Virus genome (UHGV): UHGV-0209617 | Origin: a virus | DNA length: 64,000 nt | Reading direction: 5' to 3' (one strand) | Position numbers and translations under genes: made by a program | Part shown: positions 1-42,167 of the stretch, in pieces | Numbering within the stretch: the first letter of the stretch is position 1 | How the letters are laid out: every line of letters begins with the position of its first letter | Notes under the pieces: generated by a model | Databases searched by the model: none | Told to the model about the DNA's origin: nothing | What the model saw: only the letters and a program-made list of their open reading frames with translations

Positions 1-267
1 AAGGATATGAACCTGCCTACCAAGGAACTTATGAAGCTGACATTGGAAAAAAGAATAGCTCATGGAGGCCACCCGGTGCTTAGATGGATGATGGATAACA
101 TCTTCATAAAAACGGATCCGGCGGGAAATATAAAGCCGGACAAAGAAAAATCCACAGAGAAGATTGACGGTGTGGTAGCAACCATAATGGCACTGGACCG
201 AGCAATCCGCTGTGGATTGGATGATGATGAAAGCGTGTATGATGAACGTGGGATATTACTGTTGTAA
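1..267 (+). CDS. Phage terminase large subunit, C-terminal end (gene continues upstream of the window)
   Basis: Frame is open from nt 1; the last ~85 aa (KELMKLTLEK...DRAIRCGL...RGILL) closely match the C-terminus of the intact terL at 38563-40170. Confidence 0.7.
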   Translation, partial: KDMNLPTKELMKLTLEKRIAHGGHPVLRWMMDNIFIKTDPAGNIKPDKEKSTEKIDGVVATIMALDRAIRCGLDDDESVYDERGILLL

Positions 268-639
268 GGGTGGCATATCTGAAAGAGAAACCTTAGCATA
301 AGCACCATTCTTTTTATCTTCTGGATGTGGTTCAAGTCCAATCACTGTAATAGCTTTATGGTCAGGTCCATACACCCAATACATACGCATGGCGCGGCTT
401 GTTTTGTTTTCTAAATAAGATTGCCATACTTTCATTCCATATCTTTTTGTAAGATCAGATATTTCATGGGTGTTCAAACTAGGATAAAATTGGTTTTCCG
501 AGAGCAGCTTCATGGTTTTACCCCATTTTTTATAGAGTTGAACGTCTGACTTTGATATTGTGCCTTCAGCATTTGATTTTTTGAGTCTGGTCCATAAAGC
601 AAGTATTTCAGGAATACCCAAGTGAATAGAAAATTTCAT
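256..639 (-). CDS. Putative toxin of a two-gene toxin-antitoxin-like module (RelE/ParE-like C-terminal region; family uncertain)
   Basis: About 127 aa from ATG at 639; C-terminal MRMYWVYGPDHKAITVIGLEPHPE resembles the RelE/ParE-type core; 4-nt gap to the upstream small ORF. Confidence 0.35.
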   Translation of the reverse strand: MKFSIHLGIPEILALWTRLKKSNAEGTISKSDVQLYKKWGKTMKLLSENQFYPSLNTHEISDLTKRYGMKVWQSYLENKTSRAMRMYWVYGPDHKAITVIGLEPHPEDKKNGAYAKVSLSDMPPLQQ

Positions 640-643
640 AATA

Positions 644-889
644 TCAGAACTCCGATAAATCAATTGCTTCAGAAACATTTCCCACAGTTATATTTTTTAC
701 AGCATTATCCATCATTTTTAGGGTATTTGCGGATATTTCTGCAGGAACCACAAGCTCACGAGGTTCAAGAAGAATGAAGCCATTATCATATTCCTTAACA
801 TTGTAGTACTCATGAGAGGCACCTCTTAATGTAAGGCGTTTTTTGGCATCAAGATGTGCATTATAGTTTGTTCTTATAGCAGCTTCCAT
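644..889 (-). CDS. Putative antitoxin partner (small protein directly upstream of the toxin-like ORF)
   Basis: 81-aa ORF, same strand, immediately upstream of 256-639; classic antitoxin-toxin order. Confidence 0.35.
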   Translation of the reverse strand: MEAAIRTNYNAHLDAKKRLTLRGASHEYYNVKEYDNGFILLEPRELVVPAEISANTLKMMDNAVKNITVGNVSEAIDLSEF

Positions 890-985
890 AATTTTTACCT
901 CCGTTCATAATGGTGGGATTTCCCACTGTTGTATATATCTATTTTAAACTAAAAAGAAATTTTTTTCAAGAGTAAAATGTAGAGA

Positions 986-1203
986 AACGAATAGTTCATG
1001 GAGGCCACCCGGTGCTTAGATGGATGATGGATAATATTTTCATAAAAACGGATCCAGCGGGAAATATAAAACCGGACAAAGAAAAATCCACAGAGAAGAT
1101 TAACGGTGTGGTAGCAACCATAATGGCGCTAGACCGTGCAATCCGCTGTGGATTGGATAATAGTGAAAGTGTTTATGATGAGCGTGGAATATTACTTATC
1201 TGA
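986..1203 (+). pseudogene. Duplicated 3' fragment of the terminase large subunit gene (no 5' body)
   Basis: About 216 bp at roughly 90% identity to 52-267; translation MLRWMMDNIFIKTDPAGNIKPDKEKSTEKINGVVATIMALDRAIRCGL matches the terL C-terminus. Confidence 0.7.
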
Positions 1204-1587
1204 AAAAGAATGATGCTCAGATGGGTTCATATAAAGGGTAGCCGTTTTGACACCATATTTCTTTACGGTGCATCGTTCTTTCTGGGAAGTGTATCCAAGT
1301 ACATACTTGAACACATAGCCCATTAAAGCACCCATGCACTGGCTTTCACTAGGAGAAAATTTAAAGTCGGGTGCTGGATTCATGGTTCGTTCATATATCA
1401 GAAGAAGTGATTTTACCGGGGGAATCTCAAGGTCATTGGCAAATACAATGTTTCCCATATGTACTGGATTAGCAATTGTGTTAATACAGAAATTCCACAA
1501 AGCACCAGAATTAACAAAAGGGGTTGCAGTTTTATAGGTAGTAGAGAAATCGGAATTGATTGCTTTTATAATTTCGCTGGTATTCAT
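1192..1587 (-). CDS. Hypothetical protein (131 aa)
   Basis: ORF in the intergenic space between the terL fragment and the portal fragment; no recognisable motif. Confidence 0.4.
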   Translation of the reverse strand: MNTSEIIKAINSDFSTTYKTATPFVNSGALWNFCINTIANPVHMGNIVFANDLEIPPVKSLLLIYERTMNPAPDFKFSPSESQCMGALMGYVFKYVLGYTSQKERCTVKKYGVKTATLYMNPSEHHSFSDK

Positions 1588-1720
1588 ATTAAAACCTCAT
1601 AAAAATATAACAGACAAAATATTGATGGTTTTATTATAAGCGTTTACATTGCCATTGTCAATAGTGAACATACAAAAAAATAATGGTTTAATAAGATTGA
1701 TATAAAGGAGGCATCAGCCT

Positions 1721-2212
1721 ATGAATTTCTTTTCTAAACTGTTCCGTTCAGGGGACAAGCCGACAAATTTTTTATCTACCCATTGGCCGTTCCTTTGGGG
1801 GCAGACCATATCAGGGCGGTCGGTAAATGACAGAACCGCTATGCAGGTTACAGCTGTTTATGCCTGTGTCAGAATTCTGGCAGAAGCTATAGCTGGGTTG
1901 CCGCTTAATGTGTATCAGTACCGCCCAGATGGTAGCAAGGAAAAACTTTACAGCCATCCGCTTTACCATCTTCTGCATGATGAGCCAAATCCTGAAATGA
2001 CCAGCTTCATTTTTAGGGAAACCATGATGAGCCATCTTCTGCTCCATGGTAATGCCTATGCCCAGATTATTCGTAATGGCAGGGGAGAGGTTGTGGCTTT
2101 GTACCCATTGCTTCCAAACAAGATGGATGTGAGCCGGGATAACTCTGGAAGACTTTACTACACCTACACCAGAAATTCTGACGAGCCAAATGGCAGACAG
2201 AATTATGTTTGA
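1721..2212 (+). pseudogene. Truncated phage portal protein gene (N-terminal 163 codons only)
   Basis: MNFFSKLFRSGDKPTNF...MQVTAVYACVRILAEAIAGLPL...HDEPNPEMTSFIFRET aligns with the N-terminus of the 425-aa portal at 40890-42167 and ends prematurely. Confidence 0.75.
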
Positions 2213-2543
2213 ACCACATAATACCAGTGCTATCTTCTCTGAAGTTGTATTAGCACGTTTTGCTTTTGTTTTATGGGTAGCCCCAACAGCAATTAATAGA
2301 GAACTTTTTATACATCCAGTGAGTGAGGCGTTATGCATCTATTTCATATATAGCCAATATTCAAGATAAATATCTACTGCTTCAGCGGCAGATACTTTAG
2401 TTGGTTGTACGGCAATAGAACAGCCAATAAAACTGCAATAGTAAGAAGAAAAATAGTAAAAATTTTTTTCGATGTAATCATCTAAAAAAGTATATTATCT
2501 GTCATTTGGAATACTTATTCATTAGAAGAATGTTTTCAGAAAA

Positions 2544-3044
2544 TCAATCTAGATACTGGCTGAGGTCAGCATAATAAGCTGACTTCCAGAATAATCTTTT
2601 CAGAAATCCGTTGTCCCATTTCACCATGCTTTTGGTAATATTTTCTCCTGTTTTTTGAAGAACAACGCTGTCAAGCATTATTATCCTTGTATTATTCATG
2701 CTTAATGTGCGGAATTTGTAAATTGCAGGAGTTACCTTGGCGGGAGAACCATCAGGGTTGGCACCACCGCCAGTGTTATATACCAAGCAACCGACTATTG
2801 CATAATCGCCATCAATGTAGTAATTGCAACTGGATGGATCAATATAATATGCACTTGATTCGCTGGCTCCTACCATTGGGTACTTACCATAAAGCATACG
2901 ATCGGGGTGTTCTTCCTCATTCATAGGGATAATTCCCCAAGGCTTCAGTAAATCGTGGTTTGAATTGGTGATGTTGTAAGAAGCAAAGCATACATTTGCT
3001 ACAAGGGATAGCATTAACATAGTGATAAATAAGATTTTTTTCAT
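2544..3044 (-). CDS. Secreted hypothetical protein (N-terminal signal peptide)
   Basis: ATG at 3044 gives MKKILFITMLMLSLVANVCFA..., a signal-peptide-like N-terminus; SD-like GAGGAGA upstream on the minus strand. Confidence 0.6.
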   Translation of the reverse strand: MKKILFITMLMLSLVANVCFASYNITNSNHDLLKPWGIIPMNEEEHPDRMLYGKYPMVGASESSAYYIDPSSCNYYIDGDYAIVGCLVYNTGGGANPDGSPAKVTPAIYKFRTLSMNNTRIIMLDSVVLQKTGENITKSMVKWDNGFLKRLFWKSAYYADLSQYLD

Positions 3045-12642: not shown

Positions 12643-14298
12643 ATGATTAAGGAGGTAACGGAGATGGTTGCGAAAAATTATGGTGTTGTTTACACACCGA
12701 ATAGACTGGCTGAGTTCGCAGCAGAACTTTTATATAGAGAGGCAGCAGAAACTAATACAGAAATAAAGTCGGTATTGGATCCTGCGTGTGGCGAATGCGC
12801 ATTGCTATGTGCTGCAAAGAAATATTTGAATGGTAATGTGAAATATTTGGGAATTGATGTCGATAAAGAAGCAATAATGAATGTTGAGGATGATTTTGAA
12901 ATTCTTTATAATGATTCAATTCTTCCGCGAAATGTAAAAAAACAGACGGCAGAATATTGGAAGAGCAAGATGCCAGTAATATCTGCTATAATTGCAAATC
13001 CACCGTGGAGTTCCGAAAAAATATATGTGCGAGAAGAATTGCAGAGTGCCGGTTTCTCGTTGACCACAGGACAATATGATAGCTTTGTGCTATTTATTGA
13101 GTTGGCATATAATCTGCTTGATGATGGAGGATACTTTTCGTTTATTATCCCCGATTCGTTATTTGATGCACAAAACGAAAAACTAAGAAGATTTTTGACT
13201 GAAAAGATGCAAATCAAAGTGATTGCCAGACTTGGAGAGAAGATTTTTGAAGAAGTGAATAGAGCAACTACTGTTATTGTTTGCAGAAAAGAAAAGCCAG
13301 TCAAAGATTCTGTCACCCACTGTTTCAGACTTACTACGGAAGAAAGAAGAAAGTTTTTGAATTCGAATCAGAGTTTGTTAAACTTTTACAACGAAGATGT
13401 GCATGATGTGTTGCAGGGGCGATTTGCTGAAAACGCTGCCTGTAACTTTGACGTTGATACGCGCACTGATGAAGAGGCATTGTTGGCTAAAATTAAGAAG
13501 CAGTCTATAAGTTGGGAGGATATATTCATTTTTGGTCGAGGTGTTGAGATATCCAAAACAGGAAAGGTCGTATTTTGTCCTTCGTGTGGTTATGCCCAAG
13601 GGTATAAAAAATCACAAATGGCTGAAGGAAAAAAAGAATGTACGAACTGTGGCAGTGAGATATCGGTTACTACGGCAAGTGTTCAAAATGTTATTTCACA
13701 AAGTCAAACGCCACAGACTGTTCAGATATATGTTGGAGAGAATGTTCGGAGATATGGAATAACAGGAGAATGCTATATCAAACCCAACATTCCCGGAATC
13801 AATTATAAAAATCGTGCGATGTACAACCCACCAAAACTGTTGGTGAGAAAGACTGGACTTGGAATATATGCATCGATTGATTATACGGGAAGCATGACAA
13901 GTCAGGCTGTATATATTTTGAAATTTAAAAACAGTCAACATAAGGCTCCGTTGGAATATTATCTGGCATTGCTTAACTCACGAGTGGTCTACTATTTTTA
14001 TTTGAAAGTATATGGAGAAAATGAATGGAAGTCCCATCCGTACTTTACGAAACAGATTATTTATTCTCTGCCTATTAGAGAATATGAGGATAGTGAGTTA
14101 GATAAACAGATCATTAAAGTGGCATCGGAATTGGCGCATAAATATGAATATGTCAAGGATGTTCAGCTTGAGAAGTTGGTAATGAAAAAGTATGGTCTGT
14201 CAGAGACCGAAAGCAATATGGTTTATGGTGAGATGAATCGTCTGCCTGACTTGAGTGCGATTAACAATATGAAAGTTGAGGTGGAAGCGAATGTATAG
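12643..14298 (+). CDS. N6-adenine DNA methyltransferase, gamma-class order (motif I then NPPW), with zinc ribbon and C-terminal recognition domain; probable start ATG at 12664
   Basis: VLDPACGECALL (motif I-like), IIANPPWS (motif IV), CPSCG...CTNCG zinc ribbon; AAGGAGGT 8 nt before the ATG at 12664. Confidence 0.85.
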   Translation: MIKEVTEMVAKNYGVVYTPNRLAEFAAELLYREAAETNTEIKSVLDPACGECALLCAAKKYLNGNVKYLGIDVDKEAIMNVEDDFEILYNDSILPRNVKKQTAEYWKSKMPVISAIIANPPWSSEKIYVREELQSAGFSLTTGQYDSFVLFIELAYNLLDDGGYFSFIIPDSLFDAQNEKLRRFLTEKMQIKVIARLGEKIFEEVNRATTVIVCRKEKPVKDSVTHCFRLTTEERRKFLNSNQSLLNFYNEDVHDVLQGRFAENAACNFDVDTRTDEEALLAKIKKQSISWEDIFIFGRGVEISKTGKVVFCPSCGYAQGYKKSQMAEGKKECTNCGSEISVTTASVQNVISQSQTPQTVQIYVGENVRRYGITGECYIKPNIPGINYKNRAMYNPPKLLVRKTGLGIYASIDYTGSMTSQAVYILKFKNSQHKAPLEYYLALLNSRVVYYFYLKVYGENEWKSHPYFTKQIIYSLPIREYEDSELDKQIIKVASELAHKYEYVKDVQLEKLVMKKYGLSETESNMVYGEMNRLPDLSAINNMKVEVEANV

Positions 14299-15349
14299 AT
14301 ATATAGGAAACAAATCAAAGCTGACTCCATACATTCTTGATAGGGTGGAACAGCTTATTGGAAAAACAGGAATTGTTGCTGACATTATGGCTGGAACAGG
14401 AACTGTGGCATTAGAATTGAGAAAAGCAGGTTATTCGGTTATCGCATCTGATGTAATGACCTATTCGTACCATCATTTGATGGTTAATCTTTGCTTAGAT
14501 TCAGCTCCTTCTTTTTCTGGGCTTGTGAATCATGGAGCAATAGGCAAGAATGAGGTGGATGCATATGGTGCAATCCTGACTTATTTAAATTGCATTGAAC
14601 CCAAAGAAGGTTTTTTCTTCAAGGAATTTTCTCCGGGTGGAACACCGCAGAATGGTTGCGACCCGAGAAAATATTTCACTACGGAAAATGCAAAGAAAAT
14701 TGATGCGATTAGAGAAAAAATAAATGAGTGGATTGATAATGGATATGTGAGCAAAGCTGAAGAATCGCTTTTAAAACATACTCTTATTATGGCAGTAAAC
14801 GAGGTTGCCAATATATCTGGAACTTACGGATATTTTTTGGCTGATTTCAAAAAGAATGCCAATGCACAGATTGATTTAAAACCTGTGGAATTTTGTTCTG
14901 TGAATTCAACTGGTCACATGGTAAAATTGGGATTTGCTGAAAATTTAGCTGCAACAATTACAGTTGATTTGTGCTACATCGACCCTCCGTATATGAAGAG
15001 ACAGTATGCTGCGAATTATCATATTCTGGAAACCATTGCACGAGGAGATTTCCCTGATGCTGTTGGTAAAAGTGGCTTGCGTGACTGGTGGGAGCAGCAC
15101 TCTAAATTGTGTACCAAAACACGAGGATTACAATCGTTTGAAAAGATATTAGGTGATATGCATTGCCCGAAATTTCTGATTAGCTACAGTGAGGATGGTT
15201 TGTTTACGCTGGGGCAATTAGAAGAATGTTTTAGCAAGTTTGGAACTGTTGACGTTCAAGAAATTGATTACAATCGATTTAGAAGCAATGATAGCAAGTT
15301 GCCTAAAAAACTGAAGGAATATTTGATTTCTATAGAAAGGCAGGTATAA
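14291..15349 (+). CDS. D12-class (Dam-like, alpha-order) N6-adenine DNA methyltransferase
   Basis: RYIGNKSKL N-terminal motif, ADIMAGTGTV (motif I), CYIDPPYM (motif IV); ATG overlaps the upstream stop (ATGTATAG). Confidence 0.85.
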   Translation: MYRYIGNKSKLTPYILDRVEQLIGKTGIVADIMAGTGTVALELRKAGYSVIASDVMTYSYHHLMVNLCLDSAPSFSGLVNHGAIGKNEVDAYGAILTYLNCIEPKEGFFFKEFSPGGTPQNGCDPRKYFTTENAKKIDAIREKINEWIDNGYVSKAEESLLKHTLIMAVNEVANISGTYGYFLADFKKNANAQIDLKPVEFCSVNSTGHMVKLGFAENLAATITVDLCYIDPPYMKRQYAANYHILETIARGDFPDAVGKSGLRDWWEQHSKLCTKTRGLQSFEKILGDMHCPKFLISYSEDGLFTLGQLEECFSKFGTVDVQEIDYNRFRSNDSKLPKKLKEYLISIERQV

Positions 15350-15353
15350 GTGA

Positions 15354-17024
15354 ATGGAGTGCATTGAAAGAATATTTTACAGAAAGATTAATCCTTCTGA
15401 TTTCAAAAAGTTGTATGATATTGACAAACCAGAAGGTGGCGGTGGTCAGACATACTTGGAAGCCGCTGGTATTTCAAATGAAAAAATCGTTGATTTCCTT
15501 TCCTATGCGGAGGTTACAAACAGTCCTTTGCCAGATGAAACAAGGTCTGTTTATACATTCAATGCCTATGTTTTGGGCGATTCAAAGGGTAAATGTTCGT
15601 TTGTAGAATTTGCACCTCGCAAAGGAAGAAATAACTATCGTATAAGCCGTCAGAACATGAAATATAAACATCCGGCATGGAGTTTGGATAATGGATTTCC
15701 CGAACCATCAAAAGGTGATGATGGCGAATACACATCTGCAGGCGATTTTGTGGGAATCATTGATAATCTTGTTATTCTTATCATAAGAACTACAAATCGG
15801 CGTTATTATGCAGGTTTTGTAAATATAGCGACAATGCCAGAGAACTGGCCACACAATATTGGCTTAGAGGGCATTTTTAGTGGTGAACGCAGAGATGTAC
15901 TAAAAATGGATGCGTATAAACTACAGTTTGTTAATGATGCCTGTAATCCATTCGGTGATTATGTCCCAACAATCGAAGAATGTAATCGAGCGACTACTGG
16001 TTGCAATGTGCTTTTGTACGGAGTTCCCGGAGCAGGAAAGAGTTGGACAATTGAACACGAATATTGTGCCGATGAAGGGTGTATGGAGCGATTGGTTTTC
16101 CATCCGGATTATATGTATTCGGATTTCGTTGGACAAATTTTGCCTGTAGTAAGGGACGATGACAAGGTTCGTTATGAGTTTACGCCGGGTCCGTTTACCA
16201 AATTATTAAAAAAAGCATATTGGAATACAGAACAGTCTTTTTACCTTATAATAGAAGAAATAAATCGTGGTAATGCACCAGCGATATTCGGTGAAATATT
16301 TCAGCTTTTGGATAGAAAAGATGAAGACGAAATAGATGAAAATAGGGAGATTCTCTACAAAAAAGGCACAAGTGAGTATGGAATAACAAATGCCAATATT
16401 GCACGAATCGTTTATGGCGATGAAAACCATAAGGTTCGAATTCCTGCAAATATGTCTATTTTGGGTACAATGAATACTTCTGACCAAAATGTTTTTACAT
16501 TAGACACAGCATTTCAGAGAAGATGGATTATGAGAATGATTCCGAATTCATTTGATAACCATAAGTTCGCAGACAAGAAGATTTTGGATACTGATATTTC
16601 CTGGAGACAGTTCTGTGAAGCAATTAATGAGGAAATTTTGCGTAGAAACAACATCACATCTTCTGAGGATAAGCGACTTGGGGCATATTTTATCTCGGCT
16701 TCGGATTTGGAGATGAAACCAATCACAGACGGGATGAGCGAAAAAGAAAAAATCCAAGTGGAGCATAGCAACAGCAGATTTGCAGAAAAAGTATTGAAAT
16801 ATTTATGGGATGATGCTTTCAAATTTTCCCATCAAGATACATTTAACACAAGACAGTTTGGTAGTCTTGAAAAAGTTATCGAAGGCTTTATGAATCCTGC
16901 CAAGCCTAAAAATGAGCGTTTTCGTGTATTCAATGAGAACCTTCGTAAAATGATTTTGGATGGAGTAACAGCAGAATCAAACGAGGTTTCTGATGATGAC
17001 AGCGAAGGCTCACAGGAATCTTAA
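15354..17024 (+). CDS. McrB-like AAA+ GTPase restriction subunit with an N-terminal domain of about 200 aa that I cannot assign
   Basis: LLYGVPGAGKSW (Walker A), LIIEEINRGNAPAIFGEIFQLLDR (McrB-type IDEINRAN-like motif), ILGTMNTSDQN (NTxD-type motif). Confidence 0.85.
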   Translation: MECIERIFYRKINPSDFKKLYDIDKPEGGGGQTYLEAAGISNEKIVDFLSYAEVTNSPLPDETRSVYTFNAYVLGDSKGKCSFVEFAPRKGRNNYRISRQNMKYKHPAWSLDNGFPEPSKGDDGEYTSAGDFVGIIDNLVILIIRTTNRRYYAGFVNIATMPENWPHNIGLEGIFSGERRDVLKMDAYKLQFVNDACNPFGDYVPTIEECNRATTGCNVLLYGVPGAGKSWTIEHEYCADEGCMERLVFHPDYMYSDFVGQILPVVRDDDKVRYEFTPGPFTKLLKKAYWNTEQSFYLIIEEINRGNAPAIFGEIFQLLDRKDEDEIDENREILYKKGTSEYGITNANIARIVYGDENHKVRIPANMSILGTMNTSDQNVFTLDTAFQRRWIMRMIPNSFDNHKFADKKILDTDISWRQFCEAINEEILRRNNITSSEDKRLGAYFISASDLEMKPITDGMSEKEKIQVEHSNSRFAEKVLKYLWDDAFKFSHQDTFNTRQFGSLEKVIEGFMNPAKPKNERFRVFNENLRKMILDGVTAESNEVSDDDSEGSQES

Positions 17025-17040
17025 AGCGAGGTGAGCGACA

Positions 17041-18321
17041 TTGGATTTAGGCTTAAACTTAAAAGTTAAATGTCATGTGAATAAAAATGGTGATGGCGAT
17101 AGGTTTGTCGGGATTAAGGCTGATGCTAATCAAGCAATGGTCTATTTTCCAATGGGGTATCGCCTGCCAGACAATGAAGAAGATATTAGGGATGATATTC
17201 TAAAATTGATTTCTGTATTAGCTGAGTTTACGGATTCAAAAGACAAGGTATTGGCTATGCAGAAATTTGAAGCACCACAGTCTGTGAATTTTCCAATCAA
17301 TGCCTATATGAATATTATCCGATACTATTTGGAACAACGTTCATATTACACAGAAAAGGATCCTATTCTAAAGACGAGTGACAGAGGAAAAATCGACTTT
17401 GCAGCATCTTTGCGTAGAAATGTTAGCTTTTTTCAAGAAGATGGAACTCCGTTTTTTGATAAATATACAGTAAAAGGGTCAACTCCTAATGATAAAAATT
17501 TAATAACTATGATTCACAAATACTGTGTGCATGAAAGTTTTGCTCAGATGGGTTGGCTGTTTATGCCGGATGTCCCACAAGATCCACATATTGAACGAAA
17601 CATTCCGCTTTTCCTCAGTGTACTGAAGAAAAAATTGGCAGTCACGCATCTTGAAAAGGATATTCTGCTATTTGAAGCAATGATTTCTATGCTGGAATAT
17701 TTGGATGAGAAAAGTGACGATAAACAATACTATTTTGGAACAGATAGATTTGAATATGTGTGGGAAAAACTGATAGATGCAGTGTTTGGCATAAAAGAAA
17801 AGAATGATTATTTTCCACGAACCTCTTGGAAACTAAACTATGGTGACCAACGAAGAAATTATGCATTAGAGCCGGACACCATAATGCTTTGTAATGGAAA
17901 AATCTATGTCATTGATGCAAAGTATTATAGATACGGTGTAACCGGTACACCTTCGCATTTGCCGGAATCATCATCTATCAACAAGCAGATTACATATGGT
18001 GAGTACATATATAATCATAAGAAATTTAAGGATGTATATGGTGATGATGTTCCTGTGTATAACGCATTCCTTATGCCGTATAACAAACAGGATAATCCAT
18101 TTCATATCAATGAGTATTTCGCCAATATTGGTGAGGCTGATAGTGACTGGAAATATGGCAATCATAATTATGAACGGGTGCAAGGAATTGTAGTTGATAT
18201 TCGTTTCTTGATGAACAATTACTATGGTTCGCACAAGAGTAAAATTATTAAGATGGCGAAGCTCATCGAGGAAGCCCTGCAGGAAAATGCAGATACGCTT
18301 CCAGAAGAAAAGACTGAATAA
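17041..18321 (+). CDS. McrC-like PD-(D/E)xK nuclease subunit (TTG start)
   Basis: ALEPDTIMLCNGKIYVIDAKYY gives PD...D-x-K; position immediately after the McrB-like gene; GAGGTGA 7 nt before the TTG. Confidence 0.75.
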   Translation: MDLGLNLKVKCHVNKNGDGDRFVGIKADANQAMVYFPMGYRLPDNEEDIRDDILKLISVLAEFTDSKDKVLAMQKFEAPQSVNFPINAYMNIIRYYLEQRSYYTEKDPILKTSDRGKIDFAASLRRNVSFFQEDGTPFFDKYTVKGSTPNDKNLITMIHKYCVHESFAQMGWLFMPDVPQDPHIERNIPLFLSVLKKKLAVTHLEKDILLFEAMISMLEYLDEKSDDKQYYFGTDRFEYVWEKLIDAVFGIKEKNDYFPRTSWKLNYGDQRRNYALEPDTIMLCNGKIYVIDAKYYRYGVTGTPSHLPESSSINKQITYGEYIYNHKKFKDVYGDDVPVYNAFLMPYNKQDNPFHINEYFANIGEADSDWKYGNHNYERVQGIVVDIRFLMNNYYGSHKSKIIKMAKLIEEALQENADTLPEEKTE

Positions 18322-38400: not shown

Positions 38401-38562
38401 CAAAGAAAAGCCGGAAGGACCTCGGAAGGGGGCCTTTTGGTCGTGGTAGCATAAATAGACTTTACAAGTTCCCAACTACACCATGTTAAAGTATCGGCTC
38501 CGATGGGAGCTTCATATCTAACCGCCTCTGGGCGGATTTTTTTATGTCTGGAAGTGAGAGAA

Positions 38563-40170
38563 ATGGCAATAAGGAAACTGAAAAAATACATACCGACAAA
38601 ATTCATGTCTGAAGACAGCCATTATGATAAGGGGGCGGCTGACTATGCCGTAGCATTTATTGAAGCCTTATGCCATACCAAGGGAACTTGGGCAGGTAAG
38701 CCTTTTGAGCTAATCGATTGGCAGGAACAGATTATTCGTGACCTTTTTGGTATCCTAAAGCCAAATGGATATAGGCAGTTTAATACAGCCTATGTTGAAA
38801 TACCCAAAAAGCAAGGAAAATCTGAGCTGGCAGCGGCCGTTGCAATCCTTTTAACCTGCGGTGATGGTGAGGAACGTGCGGAGGTTTATGGCTGTGCTGC
38901 AGACCGGCAACAGGCATCCATTGTTTTTGATGTTGCTGCGGATATGGTCAGTATGTGTCCTGCTTTAGCCAAGCGCGTAAAAATACAGAAATCTATGAAG
39001 CGCATGATATATCTTCCTACGAACAGCTTCTACCAGGTGCTTTCGGCAGAGGCCTATTCAAAGCATGGCTTCAATATCCATGGTGTTATCTTTGATGAGC
39101 TTCATACCCAGCCAGACCGCAAGCTGTATGATGTAATGACCAAAGGCTCCGGCGATGCAAGAATGCAGCCGATGTATTTTAATATAACTACAGCAGGGAC
39201 GGATACTCATTCCATATGCTACGAAATACATCAGAAGGCAAAGGATATTATTGCTGGGCGGAAGATTGATACAACCTTCTATCCTGTGATTTATGGTGCG
39301 GATGAAGGAGAGGATTGGACTTCTCCAGAAGTGTGGAAGAAGGCAAATCCGTCTCTTGGCATTACTGTTGGCATGGATAAGGTTGAAGTTGCTTGTGAGT
39401 CTGCAAGGCAGAATCCAGGGGAAGAAAATGCTTTTCGCCAACTTCGTCTTAACCAATGGGTAAAGCAGTCGGTTCGTTGGATGCCTATGGAAAAATGGGA
39501 TGAGTGCAGCTTCAAAGTTAACCCTGATGACCTAGAAGGACGCGTATGCTATGGAGGTCTTGACCTATCCAGCACCACAGATATAACAGCCTTTGTATTG
39601 GTGTTTCCTCCGGAGGATGAGGAGGATAAATATCATATACTGCCTTATTTCTGGATACCGGAGGAAACAATGGATCTTCGTGTAAAGCGTGACCATGTGC
39701 CCTATGATATCTGGCATAAGCAGGGATTCCTTGAAACCACCGAAGGCAATGTAGTCCACTATGGCTACATCGAGAAATTCATTGAATCCCTCGGTGAAAA
39801 ATATAATATCCGTGAGATTGCCTTTGATAGATGGGGTGCGACACAGATGGTGCAGAATCTTGAGGGCATGGGATTTACTGTTGTTCCCTTTGGACAAGGT
39901 TACAAGGATATGAGTCCGCCAACCAAGGAGCTGATGAAGCTGACCCTTGAAAAGAAACTGGCTCATGGCGGTCATCCAGTTCTGAGGTGGATGGCAGACA
40001 ATATCTTCATCCGAAGGGATCCCGCTGGGAACATCAAGGCAGACAAAGAAAAGTCCACAGAGAAGATTGACGGTGTCATAGCCACCATAATGGGGCTGGA
40101 CAGAGCAATTCGCTGTGGATTGAATTCTGGAGATTCCGTTTATGATGGGCGAGGAATTTTGTTAATATAA
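38563..40170 (+). CDS. Phage terminase large subunit (intact)
   Basis: 536-aa ORF; nuclease-domain C-terminus matches the fragments at 1-267 and 986-1203; preceded by CCGCC/GGCGG hairpin plus T-run at 38523-38543. Confidence 0.9.
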   Translation: MAIRKLKKYIPTKFMSEDSHYDKGAADYAVAFIEALCHTKGTWAGKPFELIDWQEQIIRDLFGILKPNGYRQFNTAYVEIPKKQGKSELAAAVAILLTCGDGEERAEVYGCAADRQQASIVFDVAADMVSMCPALAKRVKIQKSMKRMIYLPTNSFYQVLSAEAYSKHGFNIHGVIFDELHTQPDRKLYDVMTKGSGDARMQPMYFNITTAGTDTHSICYEIHQKAKDIIAGRKIDTTFYPVIYGADEGEDWTSPEVWKKANPSLGITVGMDKVEVACESARQNPGEENAFRQLRLNQWVKQSVRWMPMEKWDECSFKVNPDDLEGRVCYGGLDLSSTTDITAFVLVFPPEDEEDKYHILPYFWIPEETMDLRVKRDHVPYDIWHKQGFLETTEGNVVHYGYIEKFIESLGEKYNIREIAFDRWGATQMVQNLEGMGFTVVPFGQGYKDMSPPTKELMKLTLEKKLAHGGHPVLRWMADNIFIRRDPAGNIKADKEKSTEKIDGVIATIMGLDRAIRCGLNSGDSVYDGRGILLI

Positions 40171-40178
40171 ATTATAGG

Positions 40179-40207
40179 TTGAATATATCCTAGAGATGGT
40201 ATATAAT
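40179..40207 (+). promoter_or_regulatory. Promoter candidate for Phd-Doc (TTGAAT, 17 bp, TATAAT)
   Basis: Hexamers and spacing read directly. Confidence 0.5.
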
Positions 40208-40230
40208 AGCCATGAAAGGAGATGATACCT

Positions 40231-40473
40231 ATGATGGTTGATACTAATAATCTTGTTTCAATAACTGAGGCAAACCAGAATTTTTCAAAGGTCGCTCGTA
40301 TGGTAGATGAGTCAGGTTCTGTTGTAATCCTAAAAAATAATGTACCTAAATATTTAGTAGTTAATTTTGATGTGGCTGATAGCGTGGATTATACTTCAGA
40401 TGAAGAGCTGCTCATGGTATCAGATAAATTTATGAAGAAAAATAAAAAGGCGTATGAGGTATTGGCAAAATGA
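40231..40473 (+). CDS. phd: Phd/YefM-family antitoxin
   Basis: VSITEANQNFSKVARMVDESGSVVILKNNVPKYLVV; stop overlaps the Doc start (ATGA). Confidence 0.8.
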   Translation: MMVDTNNLVSITEANQNFSKVARMVDESGSVVILKNNVPKYLVVNFDVADSVDYTSDEELLMVSDKFMKKNKKAYEVLAK

Positions 40474-40844
40474 AGCGAATATCTAAACGTCAGGTATTAT
40501 TGCTGCATAATAAGCTGATAGAGGAAAGTGGCGGCTCTGATGGTATCAGGGAAGATGGACTCTTGGAATCAGCTTTGAATGCGCCTTACCATGAGTTTGC
40601 AGGTTTTTCAAACTATCCCACGATAGAAGAAAAAGCTGCCAGGCTCGGTTATGGTATAATCAAGAACCATCCATTTGTTGATGGGAATAAAAGAATTGGT
40701 ACCCATATTATGCTTCTGCTTTTGTATATCAATGGTGTTGAGTTGGTATATGAACAGGAGGAGCTGATAGACATAATTCTACAAGTTGCATCAGGACAAG
40801 CTGATTATGAAGAGTTATATGCTTGGGTTTTAGATCATGAATAA
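40470..40844 (+). CDS. doc: Doc (death-on-curing) Fic-family toxin
   Basis: Fic motif HPFVDGNKRIG. Confidence 0.85.
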   Translation: MKRISKRQVLLLHNKLIEESGGSDGIREDGLLESALNAPYHEFAGFSNYPTIEEKAARLGYGIIKNHPFVDGNKRIGTHIMLLLLYINGVELVYEQEELIDIILQVASGQADYEELYAWVLDHE

Positions 40845-40889
40845 CAAGGGTGTTGCCGTAATGGTAACGCCTATTTTTATGGAGGAAAA

Positions 40890-42167
40890 ATGAATATATT
40901 TACAAAACTTTTCAAGTCGAGGGATAAGCCGACCAACTATCTGGGCGGTTTATCCTTTTTATTTGGTCAGACTGCAGCCGGTAAGCCGGTTAATGAGAAG
41001 TCTGCCATGCAGGTAACAGCAGTTTATGCCTGTGTCAGAATTTTGGCAGAATCCATAGCAGGGCTGCCGCTTCATGTGTATAGGTACAATTCGGGTGGCG
41101 GCAAGGAAATGGTGACAGACCATAATCTGTACCGCATCCTGCATGATGAGCCTAATCCGGATATGACAAGCTTCATATTTAGGGAAACACTGATGAGCCA
41201 TCTTCTCTTGTGGGGTAATGCCTATGCACAGATTATTCGTGATCATGCTGGCAGGATGATAGGGCTGTATCCTTTACTTCCAGATAAGGTAGAGGTAGAT
41301 AGGGACAGCAGCACCGGTGAAATCTTCTATACCTATACCAAAAGCACAGACGAAAATCCGAACTTCAAGCAGGGCGGACAGATAAGGCTTAACAAGAATG
41401 CTGTACTTCATATTCCAGGTCTTGGCTTTGATGGACTTGTAGGATATAGTCCTATTGCCATGGCGAAAAATGCTGTAGGTATTGCTCTTGCCACCGAAGA
41501 ATATGGTGCTACCTTCTTTGCTAACGGTGCAACACCGGGCGGTATCTTAGAGCACCCTGGTGTGGTAAAAGACCCAGAACGTCTACGTCAGAGCTGGCAG
41601 AGTCAGTTTGGGCAGAAGAACAGCCACAGGGTAGCTGTGCTGGAAGAAGGCATGACCTTTCACCAGATGACCATACCGCCAGAAGAAGCACAGTTCCTGG
41701 AAACAAGGAAGTTTCAGATTGATGAGATTGCCCGTATTTTCAGGGTACCGCCACACATGGTAGGTGACCTTGAAAAATCCAGCTTCTCTAATATTGAGCA
41801 GCAGAGCCTTGAGTTTGTGAAATACACACTGAACCCTTGGGTTATCCGCTGGGAGCAGGCCCTTCAGAAAGCACTCCTTACAGATAAGGAAAAGGGCGAG
41901 TATTTCGTAAAGTTCAACGTGGATGGACTTCTCCGTGGTGACTACCAGAGCCGTATGAACGGCTACGCCATTGGGCGGCAGAATGGCTGGTTTTCAGCCA
42001 ATGACATCAGGGAAATGGAGAACCTAAATCCAATACCTGATGAAGAAGGTGGAAATCTCTATCTTATTAATGGCAATATGACAAAATTAAAGGATGCTGG
42101 CCTTTTTGCCGGTCAGCAGAAAGGAAAAGAAAATGAAGAGAAAGTTTTGGAACTGGGTGCGAAATGA
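40890..42167 (+). CDS. Phage portal protein (HK97-like)
   Basis: 425 aa; position after terL; homolog of the fragment at 1721-2212. Confidence 0.85.
   Translation: MNIFTKLFKSRDKPTNYLGGLSFLFGQTAAGKPVNEKSAMQVTAVYACVRILAESIAGLPLHVYRYNSGGGKEMVTDHNLYRILHDEPNPDMTSFIFRETLMSHLLLWGNAYAQIIRDHAGRMIGLYPLLPDKVEVDRDSSTGEIFYTYTKSTDENPNFKQGGQIRLNKNAVLHIPGLGFDGLVGYSPIAMAKNAVGIALATEEYGATFFANGATPGGILEHPGVVKDPERLRQSWQSQFGQKNSHRVAVLEEGMTFHQMTIPPEEAQFLETRKFQIDEIARIFRVPPHMVGDLEKSSFSNIEQQSLEFVKYTLNPWVIRWEQALQKALLTDKEKGEYFVKFNVDGLLRGDYQSRMNGYAIGRQNGWFSANDIREMENLNPIPDEEGGNLYLINGNMTKLKDAGLFAGQQKGKENEEKVLELGAK

Follow-up and report, generated by a model that had tools for sequence, protein, structure and literature searches.

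A terL–portal cargo slot, a predicted toxin–antitoxin family and the likely origin of a stacked prophage remnant in UHGV-0209617

The terL–portal junction of the remnant

The DNA analyzed here is a stretch of 64,000 nucleotides (nt) from the virus genome UHGV-0209617, referred to below in its full length as the window. Its first 2,212 positions hold part of a prophage remnant in which the end of the terL gene occurs twice. A minus-strand pair of small genes, here described as a candidate toxin–antitoxin pair, lies between the two terL ends, and a single-gene cargo (ORF131, an open reading frame (ORF) of 131 amino acids (aa)) separates the second end from a truncated portal gene. An intact prophage farther along the window served as comparator. 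Related loci found in other genomes and contigs are given as L numbers. The features are as follows.

1–267, plus strand: terL 3′ fragment crossing the window edge, with repeat copy 1 at 46–267
256–639, minus strand: toxin candidate, 127 aa, predicted RelE/ParE/HigB fold, start fixed by homologues
644–889, minus strand: antitoxin candidate, 81 aa, whose gene precedes the toxin gene with a gap of 4 nt
913–926: operator-like palindrome GTGGGATTTCCCAC, flanked by the −10 box and the ribosome-binding site that precede the antitoxin gene
941–969, minus strand: promoter-like site of the pair, TTGAAA-17-TAAAAT, 10 of 12 consensus positions
982–993: recombination joint, where homology to L003 stops and the terL codons E-K-R-I (GAGAAACGAATA) start
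982–1203, plus strand: terL-end copy 2, codons 481–555, without start codon or upstream terL
1192–1587, minus strand: ORF131, single-gene cargo
1633–1661, minus strand: promoter-like site of ORF131, TTGACA-17-TATAAT, 12 of 12 consensus positions
1721–2212, plus strand: portal fragment, codons 1–161 of ~425, with its ribosome site AAAGGAGG at 1705–1712; homology stops at ~2200
38503–42167, plus strand: intact-prophage comparator, with terL (38503–40170), Phd (40222–40473), Doc (40470–40844) and portal (40890–42167)

The direct repeat of the terL 3′ end aligns positions 46–260 with 982–1196 (215 nt, 92% identity; blastn E 3e-82). Continued in register, it reaches both terL stop codons (265–267 and 1201–1203) and then measures 222 nt at 90.1% identity. 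A preliminary description, made from the sequence alone, had placed the two copies at 52–267 and 986–1203; they are indeed homologous, and those limits missed a few bases at the left. In both copies the frame is that of the terL C-terminus, and both match the Pfam family TerL_nuclease (3.8e-12 for copy 1 and 9.2e-06 for copy 2). At the protein level, copy 1 is 82% identical to residues 468–555 and copy 2 is 78% identical to residues 481–555 of the terL product of the intact prophage. Copy 2 has no start codon and is immediately preceded by an in-frame stop at 973–975, so it cannot be translated as terL.

The portal fragment was recognized by Phage_portal (1.6e-40) and TIGR01537 (1.3e-33). In tblastn it corresponded to residues 1–161 only of the 425-aa portal protein of the intact prophage, and no further piece covering the remaining residues was found anywhere in the window. 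The terL and portal pieces are ~80% identical at the nucleotide level to their counterparts in the intact prophage. The left end of the remnant was read from the metagenome contig L001, which is 100% identical over 10.6 kb and reaches 424 nt left of the window start. In L001, another 113 nt of terL precede position 1; the gene then breaks off, at about codon 430, and adjoins the 3′ end of a transposase gene of the IS3 family of insertion sequences (IS); this contig holds terL residues 430–555. The remnant is ~2.3 kb long and has the order IS, terL 430–555, toxin, antitoxin, terL 481–555, ORF131, portal 1–161. The preliminary description was thus right to call the locus a remnant, since an IS truncates terL at about codon 430 and the portal gene breaks off at about codon 161, and right to place a 131-aa ORF and a truncated portal gene behind the repeat. 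An Rfam search of positions 1–3000 gave no match.

The stop codons of the toxin gene (256–258) and of ORF131 (1192–1194) are both TAA, the reverse complement of the same terL leucine codon TTA. The shared stop site lies 12 nt into terL, and both cargo frames read into the terL end. Correspondingly, the C-termini are variable in the toxin family and in the ORF131 family.

The minus-strand pair and ORF131

The 81-aa gene is directly upstream of a homologue of the 127-aa gene at all of the 88 loci compared, which come from genomes and viral contigs of many phyla. Homologues numbered 1629 for the 127-aa protein (~495 clusters at 50% identity) and 226 for the 81-aa protein; all are unnamed. The arrangement in the window, two small co-directional genes 4 nt apart, is that of a toxin–antitoxin operon, and the predicted structure of the 127-aa protein has a RelE/ParE fold. 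The palindrome GTGGGA-N2-TCCCAC precedes the pair in 74 of 78 distinct upstream regions across phyla (counted as GTGGGA-N(0–4)-TCCCAC in the upstream regions of antitoxin homologues). It usually lies between a −10-like box and the ribosome-binding site, and the flanking sequence is not conserved. In most of the homologous loci, a TTGACA/TATAAT-like pair occupies the equivalent place, and this conserved −35/−10 pattern supports the promoter-like site assigned to the pair. In the promoter scan as a whole, sites were no more numerous than in shuffled sequences, and no clear terminator was found. A literature search for the palindrome GTGGGA-N2-TCCCAC returned no match.

Several results weigh against a toxin–antitoxin reading. 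Neither protein matched anything in Pfam, NCBIfam, PHROGs, PADLOC or the PDB sequences, and searches at the family level were equally blank, both of the PDB with the family profile and of the libraries with 24 members of the toxin family. The curated RelE/ParE/HigB/YoeB/YafQ models gave no sequence match to the toxin candidate, and its fold was assigned from a predicted structure with a Foldseek E of only 1.6e-3. When the antitoxin family was compared by hhalign with E. coli MazE and B. subtilis AbrB, the result was not significant (probability <2%) and the alignment covered just 8–11 residues, the DG.I.LEP stretch; an AbrB/MazE assignment was not adopted.

On the basis of the predicted fold, the operon conservation and the operator-like palindrome, we conclude that the pair is a putative type II toxin–antitoxin module of the RelE/ParE superfamily, with a sequence family outside the libraries searched. 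The preliminary description had called the pair toxin–antitoxin-like and had proposed profile searches against toxin–antitoxin families. These searches stayed empty in every library; the call itself held on the other grounds. In such a module, the 127-aa protein would be toxic and the 81-aa protein would neutralize it. The conserved palindrome fits the kind of operator mark that autoregulated type II operons typically carry, and the candidate antitoxin may repress its own synthesis there. We lean towards an mRNA endonuclease rather than a gyrase poison as the activity of the toxin candidate, because its invariant residues include His, Arg, Lys and Tyr, among them those of the C-terminal HPEDKKNGAY motif. 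The alternative that the pair is a two-gene regulator or defense unit, in which a RelE-like fold has been repurposed, for example as a non-toxic RNA-binding protein, would agree with the lack of a matching toxin–antitoxin sequence model, with the silence of PADLOC and with the fact that the catalytic residues could not be mapped. Beside the toxin–antitoxin reading, we regard this alternative as quite doubtful.

The pair was found at 60–75% identity in Selenomonadaceae, Lachnospiraceae, Gardnerella, Fusobacterium, Treponema and Lactobacillus. Plasmids carry it too, invariably under a hypothetical annotation, and elsewhere it lies beside ordinary chromosomal genes. Among 50,697 GenBank phage records, tblastn found no match to the toxin candidate or to ORF131. 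In L087:1–4049 (IMGVR_UViG_3300006879_000565), the antitoxin–toxin pair is on the plus strand between the portal gene and a ClpP-like protease gene, which is a second insertion site of the pair in the head module.

Searches with ORF131 gave nothing usable from Pfam, NCBIfam, PHROGs, PADLOC or PDB sequences. Its family is confidently folded in structure prediction, and the predicted fold has no match in the PDB. All ten IMG/VR contigs with an ORF131 homologue, as well as L100–L102, have the order terL, opposite-strand ORF131, portal, protease, capsid. Since ORF131 always occupies the terL–portal gap of these contigs, it is a regular single-gene occupant of this site. Our best guess is that ORF131 is an accessory protein expressed in the lysogen. 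Homologues were also found in a conjugative element and next to dnaA. The former (L114:4001–4390, an M. gnavus-type conjugative element) is located beside RepA_N, ParA/ParB, a DnaC-like ATPase and TraG; the latter (L115:4001–4393, Urinicoccus massiliensis) is located between rpmH and dnaA in the chromosomal origin region. Outside phages, the ORF131 family thus recurs near replication-initiation genes.

The terL–portal slot in related phages and its remnants

The preliminary description had reported Phd-Doc at the equivalent junction of the intact prophage and had suggested that the terL–portal gap is a recurrent cargo site; the results agree with both statements. The Doc match is strong: PF02661 (Fic/DOC) gave 5.3e-18 and 66 bits (cut-off 24), and TIGR01550 gave 2.1e-20 and 73 bits (cut-off 38.65). 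The Phd match is weak, with PhdYeFM (PF02604) at 2.8e-05 and 24.2 bits (cut-off 29.8) and TIGR01552 at 14 bits, both below cut-off. The two genes overlap by 4 nt, with Phd upstream, as in a Phd-Doc module.

The survey of the junction covered relatives of the intact prophage with 66–87% identity in terL and 66–78% in portal. In these relatives, about 11 cargo types occupy the space that separates the terL stop from the portal ribosome site, and four of the types are toxin–antitoxin pairs: Phd-Doc, the new candidate pair, Gp49/HigB with HTH_3 (PF05973, 6e-19), and a RelE-like protein with an HTH_3 partner. The other occupants are ORF131, a YbjN-like protein, a Zn-ribbon/TM2 protein, a 358-aa membrane protein, and proteins of unknown function of 157 aa, 406+134 aa and 508 aa. 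In a distant relative, the slot is empty (141-nt gap). The new pair is the sole occupant in L083–L086 (L083 and L086 have full terL, portal, protease and major capsid protein genes; L084 and L085 are shorter contigs), and ORF131 is the sole occupant in L089–L098 and L100–L102. Homology between elements stops within the last few terL codons. On the right, the flank AAAGGAGGCAT(C/A)AGCCTATG recurs at the three portal starts that were printed (the window, L117 and the scar of L116). Variable genes thus lie between the same two core genes in related phages, and the interval from the terL stop to the portal ribosome site is a hypervariable cargo slot in HK97-type temperate phages of Selenomonadaceae and other Bacillota.

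In one relative with ORF131 in the slot (L099:1–6598, ENA ERZ28634252 scaffold_5944), a 5-kb insert interrupts the portal gene at about codon 110; it encodes two Phage_integrase ORFs, a helix-turn-helix repressor-like protein and a D5_N/DUF5906 primase. The insert has the look of a satellite or integrative element for which the portal gene serves as attachment site.

In bacterial genome assemblies, the phage locus beside the pair was always a stub (L003–L008, L010 and L018), and the intact versions came from viral contigs. In this small sample, the pattern fits an addictive module that is retained after phage death, and addiction may be what causes the retention. Portal truncations at codons 90–161 recur in L003, in L004–L007 and in the window. 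L004, L005 and L006:4097–7597, from the oral Selenomonadaceae Selenomonas sp. oral taxon 892, Mitsuokella sp. oral taxon 131 and S. flueggei, share a 3.5-kb block that is 96% identical between unrelated flanks. This block contains a portal stub (1–108), the antitoxin gene, the toxin gene, a terL stub (380–555) and a few small ORFs; the stub–pair–stub unit seems to move or persist as a block. In two Selenomonas genomes (L008 and L018:6382–6525), the toxin gene adjoins terL codons 463–503 only and not the C-terminal end, which implies a further deletion or rearrangement unlike that of the window.

Elsewhere in the window, between the remnant and the intact prophage, positions 12643–18321 carry a four-gene restriction–modification cluster of LlaJI type (an N6_Mtase/Eco57I/TaqI_C methylase, a D12 methylase, an AAA_5 ATPase and an RE_LlaJI endonuclease). 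The region at 2.5–11.4 kb contains several ORFs without a family match and one with DUF6273.

Origin of the stacked modules and comparison with known systems

The two terL ends differ at 14 of 47 synonymous sites and at 7 of 172 non-synonymous sites (dN/dS, the ratio of non-synonymous to synonymous divergence, 0.11; Fisher p 3e-6). Because this is divergence under purifying selection and copy 2 cannot be translated, the copies diverged in two working terL genes before they were joined. The two parents can be traced in the relatives. L003, which has the toxin–antitoxin pair alone in the slot, is colinear with window positions 121–993 at 89% identity and then jumps to 1720–1800 at 75%. The phages L100 and L102, which have ORF131 only, are continuous with 1021–1768. 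The homology of L003 up to the joint comprises the upstream region of the pair and the portal ribosome site GAGAAAGG. At the joint itself, L003 reads ...AAAATGATGAGAAAGGTAATATATATG, its portal ribosome site and start, which shares GAGAAA.G with the terL codons GAG AAA CGA ATA. This sequence puts the breakpoint of the left parent in its portal ribosome-site region and that of the right parent at terL codon 481.

A second, independent joint was found in L116. Here, the portal ribosome site and ATGAATTTCTTTT are fused directly to terL codons 515–555, so that the ribosome site, the ATG and 4–5 codons are followed by terL codon 515; this places a third terL-end copy between two further cargo modules. 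Both joints have the form that an out-of-register crossover of two phage genomes yields, with a whole terL kept upstream and a whole portal gene downstream. A search for the exact 27-nt joint of the window found nothing in the JGI metagenomes or IMG/VR, and a degenerate joint pattern retrieved four contigs. In all, the junction between the pair and copy 2 was present in six independent assemblies (L001, L002 and L116–L119) from different projects and assemblers. Behind copy 2, no fewer than five different cargos occur in these loci, and in L117 the portal-to-tail module is complete. The recurrence of the joint with varied downstream cargo indicates that the structure spread and kept recombining. 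A copy-2-type terL end (98.4%) stands beside a 98%-identical ORF131 in L105 and L106; the link between copy 2 and ORF131 comes from these two loci only, which may represent a single element. In L105 and L106:152–1349, a transposase pair of the IS110 family is located just upstream of the position of the portal ribosome site (window equivalent ~1707). It is the third independent IS hit on the region, after two IS3-family insertions in terL.

The dN/dS of 0.11, the break of colinearity at 982–993 and the microhomology with the portal ribosome site together argue for two phages that were joined out of register. The preliminary description had taken the repeat as a sign that the cargo arrived by recombination that duplicated the terL end. 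The repeat is a recombination scar, as it supposed; the insertion of the pair with a local duplication was not borne out. In the sequence of events that we propose, a terL–toxin–antitoxin–portal phage would have broken at its portal ribosome-site region, and the broken end would have been joined to terL codon 481 of a terL–ORF131–portal phage at an A-rich microhomology of 6–8 nt. With terL complete on its left side and the portal gene complete on its right, the recombinant could have been viable while carrying both cargos and, between them, a short piece of terL without use. Afterwards, the joined structure could have spread, with ordinary recombination exchanging the cargo that follows copy 2. 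The version in this genome would finally have been reduced by the insertion of an IS3-family element in terL and by a deletion in the portal gene, with the toxin–antitoxin operon still intact and ORF131 retained. We consider it likely that out-of-register illegitimate recombination stacked the two cargo modules and that IS insertion and deletion then left the remnant. Copy 2 is then an untranslated relic of the second parent phage.

Some observations limit this account. The terL end of L003 is equidistant from both copies (89% each), so copy 1 was assigned to the toxin–antitoxin parent by colinearity and not by a closer match. The process is documented by two independent joints, which is too few to call it general. 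Intact phages that combine the tandem with a full-length terL were not among the loci recovered, so the recombinant is only presumed to have been viable; wherever a contig extends to the left of copy 1, an IS3-family element interrupts terL. These cuts differ, as they are located at about codon 430 in the source of the window and at codon 518, on the other strand, in L117 and L118.

Among the rival explanations, a dedicated cassette system survives best. It would use the terL end as an arm, through a Campbell-type crossover of a circle or a site-specific enzyme acting on attC/attI-like sites. L116 has up to three terL-end copies between successive cargo modules, the unit of pair plus copy 2 recurs with different neighbors, and exactly such a direct repeat would result if a circle with 222 nt of terL entered by one crossover. 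However, no recombinase gene was found in or next to the slot at any locus, the terL breakpoints differ (codon 481 vs. codon 515), and the left side of both joints is the portal start of another phage, which is predicted by an unequal crossover between two genomes and not by a circle. A cassette system therefore appears unlikely. An integron-like cassette array in particular was rejected for the missing recombinase and the missing fixed recombination site. A related speculation, to which we assign the same low probability, is that the terL end and portal start are a preferred capture site, at which a recombinase-free, integron-like array grows by tandem accretion and, through its addiction cargo, outlives the phage as a mobile remnant such as the 3.5-kb stub–pair–stub block. 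If this were true, up to three modules (L116), each delimited by a terL-end repeat, would be stacked inside the packaging operon, and the ORF131 family would represent a novel kind of cargo, expressed in the lysogen and with a fold that the PDB lacks.

Tandem duplication in situ, in which the terL end and the cargo were duplicated within one prophage, drifted apart and had one cargo copy replaced, is very improbable. Direct repeats around a segment are the classic product of such a duplication, and both minus-strand ORFs end at the same TAA inside the repeat. Drift in a dead copy, however, would give a ratio of synonymous to non-synonymous changes of ~1:3.7 and not the observed 14:7. Moreover, the two cargos are unrelated, and the joint is exactly where the identity to L003 changes from 89% to 75%, a drop that two parents would produce. 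A target-site duplication by a transposon was rejected because the repeat is 222 nt long at 90% identity and not 2–15 identical base pairs, and because there are no notable terminal inverted repeats and no transposase between the copies. An assembly artefact, in which two co-occurring phage variants were merged through their shared terL end, might be suspected since the window matches a metagenome contig and repeats of ~220 nt can mislead short-read assemblers, but it is practically excluded by the presence of the same joint in six independent assemblies, by the mere 90% identity of the copies and by the non-terL sequence that borders copy 2 on the left and would not arise from a collapse through the repeat.

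Returning to the out-of-register join of two phages, the tandem structure is an instance of known processes, namely a cargo hotspot, toxin–antitoxin cargo, illegitimate recombination and prophage decay. New here are a putative toxin–antitoxin sequence family with an operator-like palindrome, a cargo family without a PDB fold match and two recombination scars; none of these findings overturns current views. If the structural assignment is right, a large toxin–antitoxin family in phages, plasmids and chromosomes of several phyla has been missed by current protein-family libraries, and it comes with a ready-made operator-like motif for experiments. The slot is compact and easily recognized in Bacillota phages of the gut, rumen and mouth, and it could be mined for defense and counter-defense genes, among them the ORF131 family. 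Extra terL-end fragments between terL and portal provide a search rule for recent cargo acquisitions.

In comparison with RelBE, HigBA, YefM-YoeB and ParDE, the new pair shows no sequence match, even by family profile. Its toxin candidate is longer than most members of the RelE/ParE superfamily (127 vs. 85–115 aa) and has an invariant C-terminal GLEPHPEDKKNGAY motif, and its antitoxin candidate matches no known antitoxin family. Like Phd-Doc of P1, the modules described here are toxin–antitoxin accessory cargo of temperate phages, and the intact prophage even has Phd-Doc in the same slot. In contrast to the P1 module, which stabilizes a plasmid prophage, they are located inside the late packaging/head operon of integrating phages, and the pair of the remnant belongs to another toxin superfamily.

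Cargo hotspots of temperate phages include old/tin and Z/fun of P2, of which old/tin abuts the portal gene (Rousset et al. 2022, PMC9122126), and the hotspots collected by iLund4u (bioRxiv 10.1101/2024.10.15.618418). The terL–portal slot resembles these in its conserved flanking core genes and its interchangeable, often defense-related cargo. It differs in its phage group, HK97-type Bacillota phages, in its flanks, the terL stop and the portal ribosome site, in its richness in toxin–antitoxin pairs (4 of ~11 types) and in the preservation of stacking scars.

The cargo units also resemble morons, since they look autonomous, have a promoter-like site of their own, lie between two late-operon genes and are in many cases on the opposite strand. 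Morons and the illegitimate-recombination model of phage mosaicism reportedly go back to Hendrix, Juhala and colleagues. As in this model, novel joints formed at short microhomologies survive here if the essential genes stay whole. Unlike in the model, the joint of the remnant falls within a copy of a gene, and it would owe its survival to the complete terL retained upstream. The two readable joints are direct sequence evidence for the model, as they preserve a record in which a portal start is fused to an internal terL site, twice independently.

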